A stretch of 64,000 nt of DNA from an uncultured Candidatus Saccharibacteria bacterium (GTDB lineage: Bacteria > Patescibacteriota > JABMPQ01 > JAQVVF01), in NCBI GenBank assembly GCA_964574655.1, contig CAZNOH010000001.1:535020-599019 (forward strand), in the 5' to 3' direction. The notes below the pieces were generated by a model. That model did no database searches. It saw only the letters and a program-made list of their open reading frames with translations, and had not been told where the DNA came from. Of the stretch, positions 12,513 to 55,208 are shown piece by piece. How positions within the stretch are numbered: the first letter of the stretch is position 1; every line of letters starts with the position of its first letter. A program made the position numbers and the translations under genes.

Positions 12513-12550
12513 ATAACTTGAAGTTTGCACCTTAAAGAAGGAGGGACAGA

Positions 12551-13054
12551 ATGACATTAAAAGTCGGGCAAGCTGTTATAATTCGAATATTGGAAGAAGG
12601 TGTTTGTCAGCGCCTGCTTGATGCTTTTGTAGAACGACTTGAGCCACTGACGTTCAGAGTTGCAACTACAGGTAGCTATTGGCACAAAAAATTTCAATTA
12701 TCTCAATGCGAATTTATTGCTCTAGGCCGTATGGAACCGAAGATCTACTGGTTCTGCAGACATACTATTCCTGATCCTCAAGGATTAGGTCAAAAACTAG
12801 ATCTTCGTCTTGTTGCCATTTCAGCATTGTGCGAGGTAACTGCTTGGGAAATTCTTTTCAGATCCCAGGGTGCCAAAATCGGTGATGCTGACTGTGACTT
12901 GCCTACTTTTAAGCAACATTTTCATATTGAAGCTACGACCAGCAACATGGACACTGAAGGAGTGTTGATCATCCACGATTGCTCCTTAGTCGCACCTTTT
13001 TGGATTGCTGATTCTGAGCCTTGCTATACGATTGAGAATATGAAACTGCGTTGA
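12551..13054 (+). CDS. ORFan protein (167 aa) in an intermediate-GC, strong-RBS cassette
   Basis: AAGGAGGG 6 nt before the ATG; G+C and codon usage clearly richer than neighbours; no recognisable domain. Confidence 0.5.
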   Translation: MTLKVGQAVIIRILEEGVCQRLLDAFVERLEPLTFRVATTGSYWHKKFQLSQCEFIALGRMEPKIYWFCRHTIPDPQGLGQKLDLRLVAISALCEVTAWEILFRSQGAKIGDADCDLPTFKQHFHIEATTSNMDTEGVLIIHDCSLVAPFWIADSEPCYTIENMKLR

Positions 13055-15886: not shown

Positions 15887-15957
15887 ATCAGTATATGTTT
15901 TTAGATTAACATAATTTTTGAATAAAAAAAAGCAGTATTAAATTGGTAACTGCTTGA

Positions 15958-16024
15958 TGGTGCCCGGAGCGGGATTCGCCCTGCCATGAAGGCAGGGCGC
16001 CCCGCCCTTGTGGCGGGGCGAACC
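15958..16024 (-). pseudogene. partial duplicate of the tRNA-Leu 3' end interrupted by two GC-rich mini-hairpins
   Basis: tggtgcccggagcgggattcg (identical to the tRNA 3' terminus), then ccctgccatgaaggcagggcg and ccccgcccttgtggcggggcg, then aacc. Confidence 0.5.
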
Positions 16025-16066
16025 CAAATTATAAGCAAAAAAAACAGCACATTACTATGCTGTTGA

Positions 16067-16150
16067 TGGTGCCCGGAGCGGGATTCGAACCCGCATGTCT
16101 TGCGACGGAGGATTTTAAGTCCCCTGCGGCTACCTTTTCGCCATCCGGGC
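16067..16150 (-). tRNA. tRNA-Leu (anticodon TAA), long variable arm, CCA encoded
   Basis: Reverse complement folds as a cloverleaf: acceptor GCCCGGA/TCCGGGC, anticodon loop CTTAAAA, long variable arm, T-arm GGTTCGAATCC. Confidence 0.8.
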
Positions 16151-16272
16151 TGAAGGAACAGAAGGTACGCGTTTTTTGTAACATTGCATTATACTACAAT
16201 GGCCAAATTTGTCAATGTTTTGTGCTTACAAATCTCACGAATGCCTTAAGCTCGAATAACACTAATATACGA

Positions 16273-16554
16273 AACTCGGTTTTTTCTTGTTTAAGGCTCG
16301 GCTTTTTACTTAAAGATTTAATGTATTTTTATATTATTTTTGCTAGATAATTATAATTTTGAAACATGTGCAAAGCCGAGCCTTTTAAATCAATGCTCTT
16401 ACTATAAATTAAAAGGTTCGGCCTTATCAAAAATCCATATCTAAATTGCTTAACAAAATTATTCTAAGATATGTATTGTTTTCTTCAATCAAAAGACCGA
16501 ACCTTGTACTAAAAAATTCATTCTTTAACTCTCATTCTTTGAACTCGGTTTTCG
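16273..16554. repeat. nested inverted-repeat pairs bounded by a direct repeat, between tRNA-Leu and the high-GC block
   Basis: AACTCGGTTTT at 16273 and 16542; AAGGCTCGGCTTT (16293) vs AAAGCCGAGCCTT (16372); AAGGTTCGGCCTT (16411) vs AAGaCCGAACCTT (16491). Confidence 0.45.
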
Positions 16555-16691
16555 AAAAAGCATTGGAGTGAGCACAAAAAAAGAGCCCACTGAAAGTGAA
16601 CTCTTGAAGGAACGAACGCTGAAAGAACTGGAATTGTTGGAGAGAAGCCGCACCCGACGCACTTGCGTTTGTCGGATGGGAACTGAAGATT

Positions 16692-17276
16692 CTAGGGGAG
16701 CTTGAGGTAGTGGCCGCCGGAGGGATCCGACATGATCTTGAGACCATCGTAGACGTTGCATCCGACGACGGTCAGCCAGTCTTCGCCACTCCGAGGCCAC
16801 GCGGAATCGACACCAGCAGGAATCATCGCGCAAGCACCGTTGTTCGCCGTCTGCAGAGCGCAGACCGGCTCGACCCCAGGAGGCATGCACCCGAAGGTCC
16901 ACGCACCGAGGCCGACGATGTTGCCGCAGATCTGGCCGTTGTCGATCCACACCTCGCATATATCGGTGTCGGGCGGATTGTTGGGCACGCACTGGGTCTG
17001 GCCCGCCTGGCACTCGTTGCCACCTTCGCCTTCGCCCTCGCAGCCGCAGTCGCACCCCTCGCCCTCGCCTTCGCCACCGTCCACCACGCCACTGTCCGTC
17101 TCACCCTCGCCCTCGTTGCCCTCACCTTCTCCTTCTCCCTCACCTTCACCCTCGCCCTCGACGCCCTCACCCTCGCCCTCGTTGCCGTTGTCCTCCATGT
17201 CCTTCTCGCGCAGGGCGCAGTTCGTGTTGATGATCGTCAGGCCGAACAGGATCCACATCGTCGCGCGCTTCATCAC
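16692..17276 (-). CDS. secreted protein with (EG)n repeat and Cys-rich C-terminal domain, in the high-GC island
   Basis: GGAGGAGG RBS; N-terminal signal peptide; GEGEGEGEG tract; 14 cysteines; GC-rich codon usage unlike the host. Confidence 0.5.
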   Translation of the reverse strand: MMKRATMWILFGLTIINTNCALREKDMEDNGNEGEGEGVEGEGEGEGEGEGEGNEGEGETDSGVVDGGEGEGEGCDCGCEGEGEGGNECQAGQTQCVPNNPPDTDICEVWIDNGQICGNIVGLGAWTFGCMPPGVEPVCALQTANNGACAMIPAGVDSAWPRSGEDWLTVVGCNVYDGLKIMSDPSGGHYLKLP

Positions 17277-17351
17277 AGCACCTCCTCCTCTCTCGTTGAC
17301 TCACCCGAACCGGGCGCTCGACTCCTTGCGAAGCCGAGCGCCCGGACGACT

Positions 17352-18416
17352 CTAGAACCGCACGCCGAAGTTACCGGCGCCGGACTTGATCATCTGCCAC
17401 CCACGCCGGTCCTCCACGTCACCCTTGAGCTCGCCACGCATCTCGTAGATGAACGACCAGCCCTCGAGCTTCGCGAGTTCTCCGACGAATCCCACGCCAC
17501 CACCGACCTCACCGCGACCGAAGTACATGTGGGTGTCGAGGTCGAACGTCCTGCCGATCAGACAGAAGTGTGGCTTGATCCACTGCTTCCAGTCGTACTC
17601 GGCGTTCAGCTCGAACCCGGCAGCACCGACCTCGTTGGCCTTGCCGTACTGCGCGCCCACCCCGATGGTCCAGCTCTCGCTGACCGGGAAGTTGACACGG
17701 AGCATGGCTCCGACGAAGTTGTCGCGCTCGGGGCTCCAGAGGTACTGTCCGACCAGGTCGTAGGTGATGTTCACCTTGGCCTCGCCGTCGTCACCCCTGC
17801 AATCCATCACGTCGCACTTCGTGTCCTTGTTCACGTCCTCATCACCATCACACTTGTAGTTTTCATTGCTGTCCCAGCACTGGACCGACGGCTTGGGCAG
17901 GCAGTCTTCCACGAGCCGGATGATAGCACCGCGCTGCCCTTCCTGGGCTCGCGTGAACATCGTCCCCTCGCGGATTCTGTTGCCGTTGACACCGATCTCC
18001 ATCAGCTTGTTCATCATGTAGCTCGCCCGCGCCCGCGCCCGAACAGCCCTGAGCGGATCCTGACCCCCAGCAGCGCGCACCTCTGCGGTGCCGCCGAACG
18101 GGGTCACGTCCTCCACCCCGCTGACTTCCAGGCATCCGAACTGAGCGGTATCCAGAGTAGCCTTGGCGCCGTTGAGGGCGTCGGTCCACTCCGTCTTCCA
18201 GCTCACGTTCTGCCCGGTCAGGTCGGCGTTGAGGAACGTCCAGATCTTCTTCTGCGCGGTTGCCCGGTCTTCCTCGGCCACGGGGGCCTCGGGAGCCGGC
18301 TGCGCGTAGGCGATCTGTCCCTCCTCGTCGTCCATCCAGAAGTAGTTGTAGGGGTTGATGTTGAAGAAACCGCAGATGAAAACCACCACCATCAGCCAGT
18401 TGATCTTGCGCTTCAT
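17352..18416 (-). CDS. outer-membrane-protein-like protein (OmpA-like segment, Asp-rich Ca-binding-like motif, C-terminal Phe), in the high-GC island
   Basis: RBS GAGGAGG; signal peptide; segment RAVRARARASYMMNKLMEIGVNGNRIR resembles the OmpA C-terminal domain; CDGDEDVNKDTKCDVMDCRGDDGE; alternating beta-strand-like C-terminal half ending GVRF. Confidence 0.45.
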   Translation of the reverse strand: MKRKINWLMVVVFICGFFNINPYNYFWMDDEEGQIAYAQPAPEAPVAEEDRATAQKKIWTFLNADLTGQNVSWKTEWTDALNGAKATLDTAQFGCLEVSGVEDVTPFGGTAEVRAAGGQDPLRAVRARARASYMMNKLMEIGVNGNRIREGTMFTRAQEGQRGAIIRLVEDCLPKPSVQCWDSNENYKCDGDEDVNKDTKCDVMDCRGDDGEAKVNITYDLVGQYLWSPERDNFVGAMLRVNFPVSESWTIGVGAQYGKANEVGAAGFELNAEYDWKQWIKPHFCLIGRTFDLDTHMYFGRGEVGGGVGFVGELAKLEGWSFIYEMRGELKGDVEDRRGWQMIKSGAGNFGVRF

Positions 18417-18674
18417 CGTCTTGCCCTCCTCATCCTCGTTCTCTCGTGTTGTAGGGTCCTAACCCTGTTGTCGGAATCTGTAGAAAGTAACATTGAATAC
18501 TAGCACAATTGAAAAAATTTGTCAACAGGATTTGATGGTTTTACCTTATATAAGCCAAAATTTAACTCTAATTTGTTATAATTATGTTTATTTGGTAAAA
18601 TAGAAGCATTAAGTTATAAGCTATAAGCTATATTTTCTTATTGCTTACAGCTTTTAGCTATAGCTCAAAAAAAC

Positions 18675-19829
18675 ATGAAAAAATCATTATTTCTCACCTT
18701 CTTTTTTCCGCCAGAACGAGGTGGAATTCAAAATTATCTGTATAATATTTGCAAAAGATTGCCTAAAGAATCAGTCGTTGTTTGGGCACCAATTAATTCG
18801 AATTCTTTCGATTTTGACAAAAAACAAGGCTTCAAAATTGTCCGAAAAAGTTATAATAGCGCATTGCGAATGTTTGGTTTGAGCAGTCTGGAATATTTTT
18901 TTACAGTCCGAAAATTAGTTAAACAAAATAAGATAAATATTATTCATTGCGGGCATATTCATCCAATGGGCATGACTGCTTATTTGATTAAAAAGATTTT
19001 GCATATCCCCTACATTGTTTATACTTATGGAACTGAGATGAAAGAAATAGAAAGCAAGTCTGGATTCACAAAGAAGATGATGAAAAAGGTATTAGATTCC
19101 GCGCAAAATATTGTTGTGACAACTGATTATATGCAAGATTATATAGTGTCCAAATTCAATTTTTCTAGAGACGAAAAAATTCTAGATAAAAAATTTATTA
19201 AAATTTGTCCTGGCGTTAATTCTGATCTTTTTCATCCTTTAGATTCTTTCAAAATTAAACAAAGATTTGGACTAGAAGATCAAAAGATTATCTTGACTTG
19301 CGGAAGATTGGTGCCTCGCAAGAATCATGAAATGGTAATCAAGGCAATGCCAAATGTTTTGAAGCGCGTGCCAAATGCAAAGTATTATATTGTCGGCAAT
19401 GGTCCGACTTTAGAAAAATTAAGGCTGTTAATTAGAAATTTAAGGCTTGATGATAAAGTAAAAATTTTTACTAAAGTTTCTGATAAGGATTTGAATTTTT
19501 ATTATAATGTTGCAGATGTATTCATAATGGCATCTAAAGAAATTGACAATAAAAAGGATATTGAAGGATTTGGGCTTGTTTACTTGGAGGCCAATGCATG
19601 CAAAAAGCCAGTTATTGCTGGCAATACTGGAGGCGTAGCTGAAGCTGTACTTGATGGTCAAACTGGGATTTTAGTCAATCCAGAAAACATAAAAGAAATT
19701 ACTGATGCGTTAGTTAAGATATTGCGAAATGATGAGCTGGCAAGAGACTTGGGTGAATTTGGATATGAACGAGCTGTAAATGAATTTAGTTGGGACAAAT
19801 TGGTGCAAAAATTAATGAGAATATTATAA
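18675..19829 (+). CDS. glycosyltransferase family 4
   Basis: GT4 architecture with a C-terminal EGFGLVYLEANACKKPVIAG motif. Confidence 0.7.
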   Translation: MKKSLFLTFFFPPERGGIQNYLYNICKRLPKESVVVWAPINSNSFDFDKKQGFKIVRKSYNSALRMFGLSSLEYFFTVRKLVKQNKINIIHCGHIHPMGMTAYLIKKILHIPYIVYTYGTEMKEIESKSGFTKKMMKKVLDSAQNIVVTTDYMQDYIVSKFNFSRDEKILDKKFIKICPGVNSDLFHPLDSFKIKQRFGLEDQKIILTCGRLVPRKNHEMVIKAMPNVLKRVPNAKYYIVGNGPTLEKLRLLIRNLRLDDKVKIFTKVSDKDLNFYYNVADVFIMASKEIDNKKDIEGFGLVYLEANACKKPVIAGNTGGVAEAVLDGQTGILVNPENIKEITDALVKILRNDELARDLGEFGYERAVNEFSWDKLVQKLMRIL

Positions 19830-31057: not shown

Positions 31058-31086
31058 TTGACAGTTAGATGATTACATATTATATT
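31058..31086 (+). promoter_or_regulatory. consensus sigma70 promoter TTGACA-17-TATATT
   Basis: ttgacagttagatgattacatattatatt about 45 nt upstream of ATG 31132; 5'UTR hairpin TGCCAC-aaaaa-GTGGCA then AAGGAGGA. Confidence 0.5.
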
Positions 31087-31131
31087 TATTTGATCTGAAA
31101 GGTGCCACAAAAAGTGGCAAGGAGGAAGATA

Positions 31132-31548
31132 ATGGGAATGGTACGCGCATGCACTGGACAGCAATCTGAAAAAACAATCGGAAGTGTTCTAAAAAGTGTA
31201 ACTCCTTTTGTTGGATCTGATCGCGAAGGTGAAATTTCGCAATTGGGCATTGGATTGATTGATGGTACTTCTGCGTCTTTTTGGGGTTTGCTAGTACCAC
31301 ATCTGGTTATCAGATCATGGCGTGCAATGAAGATTTTGGAGCAACTGCAAACTATTCAGGCAGACTCTCTATGCGCATGCTACTATGCAGCAAGGCGTGA
31401 AATTGATGATACAAATAAAAACTTGATTGAGAGTCTTGCTAATCTTTTCGGCGGTATCAATAAATTCGAGGCAGTTCGCAGAACAGTTCTGGCAAGCGCT
31501 CCTAGCGCTGATGAACTGAATGAAATGCTAGCAATTTTCCATGCATAA
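31132..31548 (+). CDS. ORFan protein (138 aa), first gene of a two-gene intermediate-GC cassette
   Basis: Strong RBS AAGGAGGA 6 nt upstream; the track ORF begins at a GTG at 31102 inside the UTR hairpin, but ATG 31132 is better supported. Confidence 0.45.
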   Translation: MGMVRACTGQQSEKTIGSVLKSVTPFVGSDREGEISQLGIGLIDGTSASFWGLLVPHLVIRSWRAMKILEQLQTIQADSLCACYYAARREIDDTNKNLIESLANLFGGINKFEAVRRTVLASAPSADELNEMLAIFHA

Positions 31549-44721: not shown

Positions 44722-44767
44722 ATGAATGTTGTCTTAAAAATTTACCTTGTTTTTTACGTTAAACTAT

Positions 44768-44790
44768 GCGAAACCTTACCTGCCTGCCGG
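44768..44790. promoter_or_regulatory. 22-bp perfect GC-rich palindrome ACCTGCCTGCCGGCAGGCAGGT about 50-70 nt upstream of the ATPase gene
   Basis: Read directly; same CCTGCC/GGCAGG arm type as the hairpins at 15979 and 53592. Confidence 0.45.
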
Positions 44791-44885
44791 CAGGCAGGTG
44801 CAAAAAAACGCAGAAAGTCGTATTTCTTTACTATGTCTGTGAATTATTGCAAGTTTTAAGGTTTGTTTTTTTAATCTCTGAAAAA

Positions 44886-48613: not shown

Positions 48614-48653
48614 TAAAAATTGAATTTGCACCTGAGAGAAGGAGGAGGAAAAG

Positions 48654-49184
48654 ATGGCGAGGATCGCAATCATCGGTGGCTCAGCAGATGAAAAGATTCG
48701 CGATGAATTGGTAGAAAAAATCACTCGCGAACTGGTTGCAAGAAAACATCAAGTATTCCATGGCGGATTGGATTTTGGAGTCATGCTTGCCTGTCATAAA
48801 GGTGGCGGTATTGGCATTACTCACCAAGATCAAATTGACGGTGGCTTTGCTTTAGCTGATGCCATGAACGTTAGCGTGTTGAAACATCAATTTCCTGGAT
48901 TCAATGAAATTGATTTTGGACGCGCAATTCGTCATCAGCTGTTGACACAAGAGTGCGATTTGGTAATTGCTTTCGGAGGTGGAATCAGAACTTTTGACGA
49001 GCTGATTGGAGCAATCATGACAAAGAGAAAGATTGTTCTTGTAGGACACGATTGGTCGCCTTTGCTATATGTTTTGTTTGGAAAAATCGAGATCGAGCAT
49101 GAAAAAACCTTGCTATGCAAAGTTTTACCTCACCATCCAATTGAAACCATTGTGTCTGCAATCGAAGCTCATTTGAAGAAATAG
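48654..49184 (+). CDS. LOG/TIGR00725-like (SLOG Rossmann) nucleotide-binding protein
   Basis: IAIIGGS ... GGLDFGVMLACHKGGGIGIT ... VIAFGGGIRTFDELIGA matches the GGGxGxM ... PGGxGTxxEL pattern of LOG-family proteins; strong RBS. Confidence 0.55.
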   Translation: MARIAIIGGSADEKIRDELVEKITRELVARKHQVFHGGLDFGVMLACHKGGGIGITHQDQIDGGFALADAMNVSVLKHQFPGFNEIDFGRAIRHQLLTQECDLVIAFGGGIRTFDELIGAIMTKRKIVLVGHDWSPLLYVLFGKIEIEHEKTLLCKVLPHHPIETIVSAIEAHLKK

Positions 49185-51014: not shown

Positions 51015-52367
51015 ATGGAAAACCAAAGCGAAAATTTTGAAAAATTACCGCCGAGAAATAAGGAAGCTGAACAATCAGTGTTGGGCTCTCTTTTGATTGA
51101 TAAAGATGCAATTATTAAAGTATCTGATTTTTTGCGATCAGAAGATTTTTATGAAGAAAAAAATAGCATTATCTTTTCTTCAATGCTGGAATTATACGAA
51201 AAGCGCGAGCCAATTGATGTCGTAAGCTTGGCTAATTCTTTGACTGACAAAGACCATTTGGATTTAATCGGCGGACGAAGTTATTTAGTTTCATTGGCTA
51301 ATATAGTACCAACTGCTGGAAATATTATTCATTATGCTAAGATTGTTCAGAAAAAATCGACTTTAAGAAAACTAATTTCTACGGCTGGCGATATATCAAG
51401 ATTAGGATATCAAGAAGGAAAAGATATTGAAAAATTGTTAGATGAAGCTGAGCAAAAATTGTTTGGCATTTCACAAAAATATTTAAAGCAAAATTTTATT
51501 GTTATTAAAGATGTTCTAACTGATGCTTTTGAAAGAATTGATGAATTGCACAGAGATGGCAGTAAACTTCGAGGAATTCCAACTGGCTTTCCTGCTTTAG
51601 ATAATGTTTTGGCTGGTTTCCAAAAATCTGATTTGATAATTTTAGCAGCTAGGCCATCTATGGGTAAAACATCTTTAGCGCTAGACTTTGCAAAAAATAT
51701 CGCAAAGCAAAAAATACCTGTTGGCATATTCAGCCTGGAAATGTCTAAAGAACAGCTAGTTGACAGAATCCTTTGCTCAGAAGCAAATGTTGACTTGTGG
51801 CGAATGAGAACAGGAAAATTGTCGGACCGCGAAGAGGATGATGACTTTCCGAGAATCGGTCATGCCATGGGCGTTCTTTCAGAGGCTCCAATATATATTG
51901 ATGACTCCCCTTCTTCAAACATCATGGAGATGAGAACAAAAGCGCGAAGATTACATTCTGAACATGGCTTAGGTTTTTTGGTTGTTGACTATTTGCAATT
52001 GATGGAAGGCCGTTCAACAGAAAATAGAGTGCAGGAAGTTTCAGAAATATCACGCGCATTAAAAGGAATTGCTCGCGAGCTTAATATTCCTGTTTTAGCT
52101 TTATCTCAGTTGTCACGTGCAGTAGAAAATAGATCTCCCCAGATTCCTCAATTGTCGGATTTAAGAGAAAGTGGTAGCATAGAACAGGATGCGGACGTGG
52201 TAATGTTTATCTATCGCGAAGAGGTTTATAAAAAAGATACGGAGAAAAAGAATATAGCAGAAATTCATATTAAAAAGCAACGAAATGGACCGACTGGTGT
52301 TATTGAATTGTTTTTTGAACAAAATGTTGCAAGCTTCCGTAATTTGGAAAAAAGAAGAGAAATTTAA
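51015..52367 (+). CDS. dnaB: replicative DNA helicase
   Basis: DnaB N-terminal domain (EQSVLGSLLID), Walker A AARPSMGKTS, RecA-fold C-terminal motifs. Confidence 0.9.
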   Translation: MENQSENFEKLPPRNKEAEQSVLGSLLIDKDAIIKVSDFLRSEDFYEEKNSIIFSSMLELYEKREPIDVVSLANSLTDKDHLDLIGGRSYLVSLANIVPTAGNIIHYAKIVQKKSTLRKLISTAGDISRLGYQEGKDIEKLLDEAEQKLFGISQKYLKQNFIVIKDVLTDAFERIDELHRDGSKLRGIPTGFPALDNVLAGFQKSDLIILAARPSMGKTSLALDFAKNIAKQKIPVGIFSLEMSKEQLVDRILCSEANVDLWRMRTGKLSDREEDDDFPRIGHAMGVLSEAPIYIDDSPSSNIMEMRTKARRLHSEHGLGFLVVDYLQLMEGRSTENRVQEVSEISRALKGIARELNIPVLALSQLSRAVENRSPQIPQLSDLRESGSIEQDADVVMFIYREEVYKKDTEKKNIAEIHIKKQRNGPTGVIELFFEQNVASFRNLEKRREI

Positions 52368-52499: not shown

Positions 52500-52793
52500 A
52501 TGTTCGAACAATTAAAAAATTTGGCAAGTTTAAGAAAGCAAGCTAGTGAAATGAAAAAACAATTAGAATCTGAATTAATCACTGGCGAGGCATTAAATGG
52601 TCAAGTAAAAATTTCGATGGATGGCAGTCAGCAAATTAAGGAAGTTTTTATTGATGAATCATTATTGGTGTCTGGAAATCAAGACAAATTACAGAATGCA
52701 ATTAAAGATGCTTTTTCAAAAGCTAATAAAGAGTTGCAGATGATGATGGTTAGAAAAATGCAAGCTGGTGAAATCCAAATGCCGCAATTATAA
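52500..52793 (+). CDS. ybaB: YbaB/EbfC-family nucleoid-associated protein
   Basis: About 97 aa; MFEQLKNLASLRKQASEMKKQLE start typical of YbaB; lies upstream of recR as in the conserved dnaX-ybaB-recR arrangement. Confidence 0.8.
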   Translation: MFEQLKNLASLRKQASEMKKQLESELITGEALNGQVKISMDGSQQIKEVFIDESLLVSGNQDKLQNAIKDAFSKANKELQMMMVRKMQAGEIQMPQL

Positions 52794-52899
52794 ATATGAT
52801 GCCAATATGCGAATCTTATGCCAATTATGCTAATTGCTAATGCTATTATTCGCAATTTGTAGATTGGCATAAAATTAGTAGATTTGCATCATTTTTTTT

Positions 52900-53502
52900 A
52901 TGAATATTTTACCAATTCCCCTACAAAATTTAATTATAGAATTCTCAAAACTTCCTGGAATAGGTCCAAAAACTGCTTCTAGGTTGTCTTTTTATTTGTT
53001 AAAATCAAAATCTGTTGATGTTGAGGCTTTTGCCAGAGCTTTGTTTGAACTTAAAAAAACAGTAACTTTTTGTTTAAATTGCTATAATCTGACTGAAAAA
53101 AATCCTTGTCCAGTATGTTCTGATATGAGGCGAGATAAATCATTGATTTGCATTGTTGAAGAACCAATGGATATTGTTGCTATAAATTCTTCTGGTGAGT
53201 TTAATGGACTTTATCATGTTTTGCATGGTTCGATTTCTCCGATAAATAATGTTGGACCAGAAGATCTTAAAATAAATGAATTATTAGGACGCTTAAAACA
53301 AGATTCTGGAATTAAAGAAATTATATTGGCAACTAATCCAAACTTAGAAGGCGAGGCTACAGCAATGTATATTGCAAAATTAATTAAGCCTCTGGGCATA
53401 AAAACAACAAGAATTGCTCGCGGTCTTCCTTCTGGCGGAGATTTGGAATATGCTGATGAAGTAACATTAAGCAATGCAATGAAAGGCCGGAAAGAATACT
53501 AA
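52900..53502 (+). CDS. recR: recombination protein RecR
   Basis: C4 zinc finger CLNCYNLT..CPVC, Toprim domain, 200 aa. Confidence 0.9.
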   Translation: MNILPIPLQNLIIEFSKLPGIGPKTASRLSFYLLKSKSVDVEAFARALFELKKTVTFCLNCYNLTEKNPCPVCSDMRRDKSLICIVEEPMDIVAINSSGEFNGLYHVLHGSISPINNVGPEDLKINELLGRLKQDSGIKEIILATNPNLEGEATAMYIAKLIKPLGIKTTRIARGLPSGGDLEYADEVTLSNAMKGRKEY

Positions 53503-53539
53503 AGATATATATAAAGCCGAAAGGCTTTTTTTGTCAGGT

Positions 53540-53568
53540 TTGACTTTAAATTATAAATTTGCTAAATT
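53540..53568 (+). promoter_or_regulatory. sigma70-like promoter TTGACT-17-TAAATT for the 53623 ORFan
   Basis: Preceded by the recR terminator (aaagccgaaaggcttttttt); followed by 5'UTR hairpin CCTGCCG-agaa-CGGCAGG (53592-53609) and a GGAGG RBS. Confidence 0.45.
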
Positions 53569-53622
53569 AGATAATTGCACATTATATTTCACCTGCCGAG
53601 AACGGCAGGATTGGAGGTTAAA

Positions 53623-54189
53623 GTGAAACAGCCACTGATATTGAGAGTAGCGAAACAGCCATTGGAATGGGAGACAGGAGCTGTTTTTGAAGAATATCCG
53701 ATTGGCACAATGATCAGATTGCCGATAACAAAGCGATTTGGTCCTTTTTGGCTATTCAAGTATCATACTGATGTTACTGCAAAAGTTGTTGCTCAAGATG
53801 CTGAAATCGTGAAGAGAAAAAGCAATGGAAAAACAATTCCCTTTTTTCATAGTGTTGCGGAATTGTATATTGCACCATATGGCAAACGATGCTTGTTGGG
53901 AGTATTGGATAAGTTTATGATGGACGGATTTGCTGAAGTTCTTTCTGTACCAGATTGCGAGATGCATGATGAAGATGGGAAAAAAGTCTTCACGGAGCTT
54001 GCAGTTGGAGATTCTGTCAGAGCATACAGAGAAGACACTCGCATAGAAGGAAAGATTATTGCTATAACTGGATTGAATGTATATACAATTTCTGATCTTC
54101 GCGATCCAGACTGGACTCATTACCTTAATGTTTCGCTGAGAGATTTGCTTTGGTACAAGAGAGAGCCGAATAAGGGGCAACTGGTTTGA
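53623..54189 (+). CDS. ORFan protein (188 aa from GTG 53623; the track ORF starts at a TTG at 53575 inside the 5'UTR)
   Basis: GGAGG 5 nt before GTG; intermediate G+C; no recognised domain. Confidence 0.45.
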   Translation: MKQPLILRVAKQPLEWETGAVFEEYPIGTMIRLPITKRFGPFWLFKYHTDVTAKVVAQDAEIVKRKSNGKTIPFFHSVAELYIAPYGKRCLLGVLDKFMMDGFAEVLSVPDCEMHDEDGKKVFTELAVGDSVRAYREDTRIEGKIIAITGLNVYTISDLRDPDWTHYLNVSLRDLLWYKREPNKGQLV

Positions 54190-54203
54190 TTATCGTTCTT
54201 TTT

Positions 54204-54264
54204 TAGACATGAATTCATGTCTTTTTTTAATACAAAAAAAGACTGCATATCTTTGCAGTCTTTT
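54204..54264. terminator. two tandem bidirectional terminators (GACATGAATTCATGTC plus T-run; AAAAAAAGACTGC-atatcttt-GCAGTCTTTT)
   Basis: Perfect palindromes flanked by A and T runs between convergent genes. Confidence 0.55.
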
Positions 54265-54274
54265 AAAATATTAT

Positions 54275-54589
54275 TTAGGAAATTTTTGTGATTTTTACTT
54301 CAGTATATACTGGTCTGAAACCAACTGTTCTTTTGTATCTTTTTTTAGCCTTATATTTGACTGTTAGAACCTTGTCGCCTTTTACTTCTCCTCTTAGAAC
54401 TTCAGCTTCTACTTTTGTTCCAGAAATTCTTGGCGCGCCAATCTTAGTTGCTTTTTCATCTATGAACAAAAGCACTTCTTTAAACTCTATTGTCTTCTTT
54501 GGATCCATAATTTTGTCAATCAAAATAATGTCACCTTCAGAGACCTTGTATTGCTTACCGCCTGTTTTTATAATTGCAAATTTTGTCAT
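54275..54589 (-). CDS. rplU: 50S ribosomal protein L21
   Basis: MTKFAIIKTGGKQYKVSEGD N-terminus. Confidence 0.85.
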   Translation of the reverse strand: MTKFAIIKTGGKQYKVSEGDIILIDKIMDPKKTIEFKEVLLFIDEKATKIGAPRISGTKVEAEVLRGEVKGDKVLTVKYKAKKRYKRTVGFRPVYTEVKITKIS

Positions 54590-54772: not shown

Positions 54773-54806
54773 GAAATTGGGTAGCTAAGTGTCGGAGGGA
54801 AACAAC

Positions 54807-55208
54807 ATGCCAGCCAGAAAAGTCACCGAGAAGTCTGCTAGTAGCCAGGATCCTGGCAGTAAAAACGCAGGCTGCACTGACAAAAAAACGATGGTGCTGT
54901 TGATGGAGTGTGACGCGCAGAAATGTAGAGCCCTTTGTAAAGCATTGGAAGATGCGGGATTCGGTATTTTTGTTTGTAACGATTTGAGTTCCTGCATTCA
55001 CACAATTAGAGTTGGTTACGAAATTGGATTTGCTCTGATTGCTCCAACTATTGAAGGTCGCAATGGATACATGTTAACAGTTAGGAAGTTTTGCGCAGAA
55101 CAGAAAATCCCTCTTGAAGAAATTGATGACTATACTGTTGGCAAAATCAAAAGACACGGCATTCATTTCCAACAGCAAATTGCTCCACCGCAAATTATCA
55201 CACAATAG
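54807..55208 (+). CDS. small receiver(REC)-like protein lacking the canonical acid pocket (133 aa from ATG 54807)
   Basis: Alternating beta/alpha pattern MVLLMECD...GFGIFVCND...GFALIAPTIEGRNGYML resembling CheY-like receivers; GGAGGG RBS; intermediate G+C. Confidence 0.4.
   Translation: MPARKVTEKSASSQDPGSKNAGCTDKKTMVLLMECDAQKCRALCKALEDAGFGIFVCNDLSSCIHTIRVGYEIGFALIAPTIEGRNGYMLTVRKFCAEQKIPLEEIDDYTVGKIKRHGIHFQQQIAPPQIITQ

Follow-up and report, generated by a model that had tools for sequence, protein, structure and literature searches.

This locus raises two related questions: what is a gene of 188 codons, with almost no relatives, doing between the housekeeping genes recR and rplU, and why does a perfect GC-rich hairpin stand directly in front of its ribosome-binding site? 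The stretch of DNA analysed, called the window below, comprises 64,000 nt of contig CAZNOH010000001.1 from an uncultured Candidatus Saccharibacteria bacterium and is AT-rich (about 31-34% GC). At roughly even chances, we read positions 53536-54229 of this window as an accessory transcription unit that is self-contained and moron-like, is inserted between recR and rplU and has in its leader a stem-loop that forms constitutively. It comprises a strong promoter of the extended -10 type, a leader predicted to measure about 48 nt, a GTG start at 53623 led by a Shine-Dalgarno (SD) sequence, a protein of 188 amino acids (aa) and its own terminator. The original prediction, made from the same DNA, had likewise described a cassette that stands by itself, transcribed from a promoter of its own, translated from an SD-led GTG and closed by a terminator, and in this respect it holds. 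The parts of the unit are the following.

53540-53568, + strand: sigma-70-type promoter called by the promoter scan, with -35 TTGACT (53540-53545), a 17-nt spacer and extended -10 TGcTAAATT (53560-53568)
53575-53591, + strand: 5' part of the leader, TTGCACATTATATTTCA, within which TTGCACATT is invariant between lineages; it holds an in-frame TTG at 53575
53592-53609, + strand: core leader hairpin CCTGCCG-AGAA-CGGCAGG, seven GC-rich pairs and a 4-nt loop, ending 3 nt before GGAGG
53613-53617, + strand: SD sequence GGAGG, 5 nt before GTG 53623
53623-54189, + strand: protein-coding gene of 188 aa, GTG start and TGA stop, recognised by a 43%-identical homologue and by dN/dS
53622-53648 and 53649-53675, + strand: in-frame tandem duplication of the start region, 27 nt, beginning AGTGAAACAGCCACTG and AGCGAAACAGCCATTG (repeat scan, spacing 27)
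54205-54229, + strand: cassette terminator called by the terminator scan, an 18-nt perfect palindrome AGACATGAATTCATGTCT (54205-54222, 9+9 nt, containing GAATTC) followed by a T run

Conservation of the transcription unit

The promoter announced by the original prediction, TTGACT-17-TAAATT downstream of the recR terminator, was recovered by the scans, with the addition that the TG before the -10 hexamer makes it an extended -10 element. Its -35 box and TGnTAAATT are invariant across four related loci (L087, L088, L089 and L214), and in an alignment of five sequences the -35, TGnTAAATT, an AGATA string, TTGCACATT, both hairpin arms and GGAGG are all kept. Transcription is predicted to start at about 53574-53577.

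Non-synonymous (dN) and synonymous (dS) divergence and their ratio omega were estimated by the Nei-Gojobori method between the window and L088, for the open reading frame (ORF) of the cassette and for the flanking genes dnaB, ybaB, recR, rplU and murI. The dS of the ORF (1.17) matches that of the flanking genes (0.95-1.19), which is consistent with a shared vertical history of the ORF and its flanks. In contrast, dN reaches 0.47 in the ORF against 0.035-0.066 in the flanks, and omega 0.40 against 0.03-0.07. Between L088 and L214 the ORF carries 17 synonymous and 17 non-synonymous differences, and the corresponding ratio of proportions (pN/pS) is 0.27, compared with 0.02-0.05 for the flanking genes. 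As judged from these substitution patterns, the ORF is coding and under purifying selection, and its protein evolves about ten times faster than its neighbours.

The regulatory parts behave differently from the protein that they drive. Identity between the window and L088 is 80-90% for the flanking genes, 50-68% for the ORF, 78% for the promoter and leader and 76% for the terminators, and from the -35 box to the hairpin it is about 83% (counted by hand on the five-sequence alignment) despite saturated dS. From the recR stop codon to the ATG of the gene, L088 and L214 are identical at 131 of 133 nt, whereas synonymous sites of the flanking genes differ by 15-36% in the same pair. These comparisons indicate that terminator, promoter and leader are jointly under strong constraint and that the regulatory region is better conserved than the encoded protein.

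Translation start

The place of the hairpin in the unit depends on where translation begins. The database annotation, on an NCBI contig of 654 kb, places the start at TTG 53575 and gives a protein of 204 aa, in which case translation would be leaderless or nearly so, with the hairpin and GGAGG inside the coding sequence. This TTG lies 6 nt past the -10 box, the geometry of a leaderless transcript, and the resulting 16-codon extension is in frame and open in both lineages, so that such a start is not to be dismissed on geometry alone; moreover, its translation is identical at 9 of 16 positions, with conservative changes elsewhere (MHIIFHLPRTAGLEVK in the window and, in our own translation, MHILFCLPKSAGYGGK in L088). 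However, GGAGG is kept as nucleotides while its frame shifts, being read from the TTG as L-E-V in one lineage and as Y-G-G in the other, which favours the GTG/ATG start over the upstream TTG. Of the 13 substitutions that separate window and L088 in the extension, 3 affect first, 5 second and 5 third codon positions, without third-position bias (manual count on the alignment), and UUG is a rare and weak start on leaderless mRNAs (PMC8459731). A GTG or ATG is kept 4-5 nt past GGAGG in both lineages, and gene callers start the two homologous entries P0122 and P0123 at an ATG. Initiation at the TTG is therefore very improbable in our estimate, and GTG 53623 is, as far as the alignments tell, the start with high probability.

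The ATG of the L088 homologue aligns exactly with the GTG of the window, and GGAGG is retained there but displaced by 1 nt; its spacing to the start is 5 nt (GTG) in the window and 4 nt (ATG) in L088, and in both lineages it follows the stem by 3-4 nt. The original prediction had named a true start at TTG 53575 as the finding that would refute it, and this alignment together with the shifted frame points the other way. Among the 44 copies of GGAGG in the window, 13 precede the start codon of an ORF (60 aa or longer) at a distance of 3-11 nt, which argues that SD-led initiation is in use here; GGAGG acts as SD for about 11 ORFs of the window. The 27-nt duplication of the start region explains nine extra N-terminal residues (KQPL...KQPL) relative to P0122, and in our reading of the alignments and the repeat the GCG at 53650 of the window aligns with the ATG of P0122. 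A 12-nt complementarity between the -35 region (53538-53549) and the start region (53618-53629) was also found; it is not conserved in L088 and was treated as chance.

At about 0.42, the GC content of the ORFs of the window that are led by GGAGG exceeds that of the housekeeping genes; recR and rplU lack an SD sequence. The string TTGCAC, with which the leader of the cassette opens, recurs in the leaders of two other GGAGG-led ORFs, at 12525 and 48626; the segments 12525-12553 and 48626-48656 share TTTGCACCT-N7-GGAGG, and their ORFs encode proteins of 167 aa (an orphan) and 176 aa.

The leader stem-loop

The perfect 7-bp GC hairpin, GGAGG, GTG start and 188 codons of the original prediction were found at 53592-53609, 53613-53617 and 53623-54189, although the gap between hairpin and GGAGG is 3 nt and not 4. 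The hairpin sequence is unique in the window, both exactly and as a pattern with two mismatches (0.02 expected). Hairpins that are perfect, GC-rich and 7 bp or longer in the stem are rare in the window, occurring at six loci, compared with 0.76 register-level matches expected from locally shuffled sequence. In the L088 clade the stem is identical and the loop is AAGT instead of AGAA, three of its four bases being changed. The minimum free energy (MFE) of the leader is -19.7 kcal/mol in the window (z = -3.7) and -24.1 kcal/mol in L088 (z = -3.5). An intrinsic terminator or attenuator was rejected, since the stem is followed by AUUGGAGGUUAAAG, with no U tract, and the terminator scan makes no call there. 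Rfam 15 gave no match for 53570-53625 at gathering thresholds and none at E<=10 on 53400-54400.

The original prediction proposed that the hairpin occludes or exposes the ribosome-binding site depending on its pairing partner, and this part of it is not supported. In one rival explanation of this kind the leader would be a riboregulator that occludes the SD, for instance a thermometer of the fourU type, in which the GC hairpin nucleates a long helix that melts with temperature or under a trans-acting factor. The MFE folds of both lineages indeed lengthen the hairpin by weak helices in which the A/U-rich 5' flank takes up the start codon and part of the SD (in the window UUUCA with UGGAG and CAC with GUG; in L088 UCUAU with AUGGA and CAU with AUG); the SD and start of the window are predicted to be at least 95% paired at 37 C, and opening this region is predicted to cost 11.7 kcal/mol at 15 C and 3.4 kcal/mol at 55 C. 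Yet the SD lies outside the stable GC hairpin itself, and when the flanks (18-19 nt) were shuffled 1000 times, 23% of the shuffles for the window and 35% for L088 occluded the SD and start equally or more, so that occlusion is not above background. The bases that pair with the SD also differ between the two lineages available: in the window they are UUUCA, directly beside the stem, and in L088 they are UCUAU, set three bases farther from it, and the SD of L088 is 24-40% unpaired. The opening energy from SD to start (6.7 kcal/mol in the window, 4.6 in L088) is mid-range, the cassette taking 12th place when 31 candidate initiation regions of the window are ranked, and no thermometer or leader family of Rfam matches. 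For the hairpin arms no alternative partner shared by both lineages was found, and blocking either arm raises the MFE by 10-14 kcal/mol. We consider a riboregulator of this kind quite improbable; the leader element looks like a fixed stem-loop standing 3-4 nt upstream of a strong SD, not like a switch.

In the reading that we prefer, the 7-bp hairpin would be a constitutive leader stem-loop, kept by selection and without a competing fold, and expression would be set post-transcriptionally: hairpin and ribosome at the strong SD would together protect the short leader from decay that depends on the 5' end or, alternatively, the hairpin would define a single-stranded landing site for the 30S subunit. 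By analogy with known leader stem-loops, it probably affects mRNA stability or the tuning of translation; both the transcription start and this stabilising or tuning role are inferred. Several points weigh against this assignment. The core hairpin lies about 17 nt from the predicted 5' end, further in than classical 5'-terminal stabilisers, and only weak outer helices (from 53578) reach that end. The mid-range opening energy gives no sign of special tuning. No stem position varies between the two independent lineages that carry the element, so that they show no compensatory change by which an RNA hairpin could be told from a DNA operator. The arms CCTGCC and GGCAGG also occur at two other loci of the window, a hint of sequence-specific recognition over generic structure.

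This last point leads to a different explanation, namely that the inverted repeat is a sequence-specific site for a factor common to CCTGCC...GGCAGG palindromes, through which the cassette would be repressed or activated in trans, either as a DNA operator at about +18 to +35 or as a protein-bound RNA hairpin. The pattern CCTGCC-N(0-12)-GGCAGG occurs at three loci in 64 kb (the leader, 15980-15996 and 44778-44799) where 0.01 are expected; the copy at 44778-44799, which precedes the start of an 840-aa ORF by 57 nt, has the longer string CACCTGCC in common with the leader; the related locus L085 bears two such palindromes between dnaB and ybaB; and an invariant stem with a variable centre would suit an operator as well as a hairpin. 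On the other hand, the spacing of the arms varies (4, 5 or 8 nt, or none), as sites bound by a dimeric protein on DNA seldom do, a candidate regulator was not identified, and the copy at 15980 borders a GC-rich island in which chance strings are likelier. The leaders of the L090 cassette and of the ORF at 31132 carry hairpins of other sequence in the same position, which favours, on this comparison, a structural role over a sequence-specific one, and we hold a shared recognition site to be rather unlikely. A REP-like (repetitive extragenic palindromic) or "GC-cluster" insertion into a permissive leader, harmless or self-maintaining and without a dedicated role in expression, would be another way to account for the hairpin. 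It would agree with the excess of GC-rich perfect hairpins in the window, with a hairpin pair that interrupts a duplicated tRNA-Leu 3' end, with the palindrome-bearing 164-nt spacer at about 44722-44885 that is a 3-nt gap in L087 and L088, and with the 20-nt palindrome CCTGCCTGCCGGCAGGCAGG, which 35 stretches of IMG/VR contain, some of them more than once, and which in one case lies inside a tRNA-Met. But the exact hairpin of the cassette is not dispersed, the 18-nt versions of the window and L088 giving single chance matches in GC-rich contigs of IMG/VR; its position and stem are intact across saturated synonymous divergence, and the surrounding leader is equally conserved. Such an insertion is improbable in our view.

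A more speculative proposal, to which we give a small chance, combines these elements: the CCTGCC...GGCAGG hairpin and a TTGCAC(C/A)T leader motif would mark a small regulon under one RNA- or DNA-binding factor. Its members may be GC-richer, GGAGG-led, fast-evolving orphans in an otherwise SD-poor genome, for instance genes by which an episymbiont interacts with its host, and the recR-rplU slot may then be a hotspot at which cassettes are swapped among strains by homologous recombination.

Two leaders with hairpins of other sequence can be described more closely. The leader (31085-31134) of a 138-aa orphan ORF that starts at 31132 contains UGCCAC-AAAAA-GUGGCA, ending 1 nt before GGAGG, a layout like that of the cassette. 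In L090, positions 720-1155 carry a TTGACA-17-TGnTAAATT promoter, built like that of the cassette, and a GC hairpin GGUGCUC...GGGCACC that abuts AGGAGG; the string CACCTGCC is common to this leader and the leader of the cassette.

The protein and its family

The product of the gene is a protein of 21.6 kDa with a pI of 6.9. By inspection it has no signal peptide and no membrane segment, and it is presumably cytoplasmic. Pfam, NCBIfam, PHROG and PADLOC contain no family that matches it, in agreement with the absence of a recognisable domain noted by the original prediction. The same source called it an ORFan, which is nearly right: a word-indexed search of 5.8 billion clusters returned the protein itself only, and an exhaustive phmmer search of 1.84 billion representatives returned one further protein, P0122 (178 aa, E = 2e-35), which is 43% identical over 174 residues by BLASTP. 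Besides P0122 itself, its cluster contains just MDD3887227.1, which is annotated as hypothetical and comes from a Patescibacteria metagenome-assembled genome, and a profile search with the two sequences found nothing beyond this cluster. The family thus numbers three sequences among about 15 billion proteins and is, by these searches, new and very narrow. A scan of metagenome contigs with the two-sequence protein alignment found nothing, a scan of viral contigs with the protein found no relative, and none was present in PHROG or IMG/VR. No homology was found between this protein and the other ORFs that follow recR in relatives or the GGAGG-led orphans of the window. The window also contains a 142-aa antisense ORF, which is not conserved.

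Structure prediction was of limited help. The AlphaFold model from the single sequence was unusable (predicted local distance difference test, pLDDT, 36), and the model from two sequences reached a mean pLDDT of 44, with residues 125-181 alone at 56-71, forming a five-stranded barrel. Foldseek searches of PDB and BFVD gave no match at E<0.001 and none below 0.017 (best about 0.02), the top non-significant matches being tandem Agenet, Tudor, PWWP and R67-DHFR barrels and small phage barrels; a profile search of PDB with the protein gave no match. This model gives a hint, no stronger, of a C-terminal SH3/Tudor-like beta-barrel at about residues 125-181.

A variable slot between recR and rplU

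The neighbours of the cassette, with the terminators that separate them from it, are as follows.

51015-52367, + strand: dnaB (ORF listing and Pfam)
52500-52793, + strand: ybaB (ORF listing and Pfam)
52900-53502, + strand: recR (ORF listing, Pfam RecR domains)
53513-53535, + strand: recR intrinsic terminator, AAAGCC-GAAA-GGCTTT and a T run (terminator scan)
54237-54264, - strand: rplU terminator, AAAAGACTGCA...TGCAGTCTTTT, called by the scan on the - strand and conserved in L088
54275-54589, - strand: rplU (L21), convergent with the 188-aa ORF

The recR terminator insulates the cassette from recR, and its stem shows a compensatory change, GCC/GGC in the window against GCT/AGC in the L088 clade. 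Downstream of the gene the original prediction had placed two tandem bidirectional terminators, the first of them a 16-bp palindrome. Two hairpins are present, but the palindrome measures 18 nt and the two are not both bidirectional. The first is flanked by T runs on both sides on the + strand and terminates the + strand ORF only; its stem AGACAT/ATGTCT is kept in L088 with a different loop. The second has an A run before it and just TTTT after it, and since the terminator scan places its call on the - strand, it is the terminator of rplU. The two are face-to-face terminators of convergent genes. Composition also sets the ORF apart, with GC 0.40 and GC at third codon positions (GC3) 0.34 against 0.32-0.36 and 0.18-0.27 in its neighbours.

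P0122 and P0123 occupy an identical slot on syntenic contigs, recR - ORF - rplU (-), in a sister lineage of Patescibacteria whose RecR is 90% identical to that of the window. In other relatives recR is followed directly by rplU: L082 and L083 (RecR 90%), L084 (84%) and L085 (75%), with spacers of about 90-190 bp, those of L082 and L084 being mutually homologous and unlike the flanks of the cassette. L090 (RecR 88%) has an unrelated + strand ORF after recR, and L091 and L092 carry other orphan ORFs. By identities of dnaB, recR, rplU and a glycosyltransferase gene, L088 and L082 are sisters (0.88-0.92), the window branches outside this pair (0.83-0.87) and L084 is more distant still (0.74-0.79). 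The cassette is present in the window and L088, and L082 has the empty spacer that it shares with L084. Because L082, the sister of L088, is empty while the window carries the cassette, no simple gain or loss fits the tree of the flanks, and it is reasonable to suppose either that homologous recombination in the conserved flanks has exchanged alleles or that presence and absence have long persisted side by side as a polymorphism. A RecR scan of genome contigs gave matches across many phyla at up to 61% identity, and the lineage of the window was not among them.

Two kinds of mobile element were considered and rejected. Candidate terminal inverted repeats (53522-53534 and 54232-54244) are merely the T and A runs of two terminators. 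An integron gene cassette does not agree with the cassette's own promoter, with downstream hairpins that are terminators with T runs, or with neighbours that include no integrase. The cassette is not bordered by direct repeats, and its flanks gave no convincing alignment with the spacers of L082 and L084, where the site is empty.

Elsewhere in the neighbourhood, the ybaB-recR spacer (52794-52899) is a 106-bp imperfect palindrome with 39-nt arms that are 79% complementary and with internal ATGCCAAT/TGCTAAT repeats; it measures about 9 bp in L082 and L088, and L214 has a different AT-rich palindromic insert of 107 bp at that place. The ORF after rplU (54789-55208) most likely starts at ATG 54807 (133 aa, GGAGG 8 nt upstream) and not at GTG 54789; its orthologues are 133 aa long, it has no significant Pfam match, and at an omega of 0.185 it evolves fairly fast. 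In L084 and L214 a canonical Response_reg gene adjoins its orthologue.

Related palindromes elsewhere

The locus at 44778-44799 is a perfect 22-nt palindrome, ACCTGCCTGCCGGCAGGCAGGT (TTGCACCTGCCTGCCGGCAGGCAGGT on the - strand). Its 164-nt spacer (44722-44885) extends from a 150-aa ORF to the 840-aa ORF, which is VirB4/TrwB-like. The IMG/VR stretches with the exact 20-nt core (L215-L249) range from 38 to 68% GC; some contigs carry several copies, some of them with short flanking direct repeats, and the tRNA-Met copy, in L239, forms the variable arm. It may represent a palindrome of REP-like or mobile character that is widespread, or else a (CCTG)n/(CAGG)n structure that has arisen repeatedly; a literature search on the 20-nt palindrome or on GC-rich palindromes in Patescibacteria found no papers. 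When metagenome contigs were scanned for CCTGCCG-N4-CGGCAGG-N3-4-GGAGG, at least 120 matches were returned, all of them chance, at 39-76% GC and unrelated to this locus.

At the third locus the 3' end of tRNA-Leu(taa), GATGGTGCCCGGAGCGGGATTCG, is duplicated about 90 bp away (15957-16019 and 16067-16150), and the T-loop of the duplicate is broken by the adjacent GC hairpins CCCTGCC-ATGAA-GGCAGGG and GCCCCGCC-CTTGT-GGCGGGGC. The duplicated end resembles a repeat of the att type marking the border of an island, which covers about 16000-19000 at 45-63% GC in a genome of 31-34% and contains GGAGG-led ORFs with signal-peptide-like N-termini and EGEGEG repeats. The island was probably acquired horizontally, or else is a chimeric assembly.

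Significance

Patescibacteria, or candidate phyla radiation, have tiny genomes in which gene regulation and many orphan genes are little understood, and almost no regulatory elements have been characterised in them. The locus described here offers a compact example of a strain-variable slot between two housekeeping genes, of a three-sequence family that is nonetheless under purifying selection, and of a module of promoter, hairpin and SD whose conservation exceeds that of its protein product. Should the hairpin set the stability of the mRNA, or be a recognition site shared with other loci, it would provide a handle for the control of expression in these bacteria.

Comparison with known systems

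Like REP sequences, bacterial interspersed mosaic elements (BIME) and GC clusters, the hairpin is a GC-rich intergenic palindrome in an AT-rich genome with related CCTGCC/GGCAGG arms at several loci; unlike them, it has only three loci in 64 kb, which have just the arms in common, and the copy in the leader is fixed in place and conserved between lineages. We saw no GTAG-type flank and no gene for a REP-associated tyrosine transposase (RAYT). With fourU and ROSE (repression of heat shock gene expression) thermometers it has in common U-rich bases 5' of the hairpin that can pair with GGAG and a predicted accessibility that rises with temperature, whereas its occlusion does not exceed that of shuffled flanks, the anti-SD bases are not conserved and the GC stem excludes the SD. 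As regards the protein, the modelled C-terminal barrel of about 60 residues (125-181) recalls Tudor, Agenet and SH3-like barrels, but mean pLDDT is 44 and there is no match at E<0.001 and no sequence match in Pfam or PDB.

Phage morons are autonomous promoter-ORF-terminator units between conserved genes, described for lambdoid phages. The cassette resembles them in having its own promoter and terminator, in lying between genes that are adjacent in relatives, in its deviant composition and in its patchy presence, and differs in that its flanks are chromosomal housekeeping genes (dnaB-ybaB-recR and rplU) and not a prophage, and in that no viral relative was found.

The leader, in turn, is closest to those of ompA in E. 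coli and aprE in B. subtilis, mRNAs which, according to the reference list of PMC3997798, are stabilised by 5' stem-loops and ribosome binding. The likeness extends to a stable stem-loop, a short leader, an adjacent strong SD, a monocistronic message and a static fold, although the ompA and aprE hairpins lie at or a few nt from a mapped 5' end while the core stem of the cassette lies about 17 nt from a predicted one. Taken together, an autonomous, strain-variable accessory gene and a conserved leader stem-loop are elements of known kinds, and it is the protein family itself that is new.

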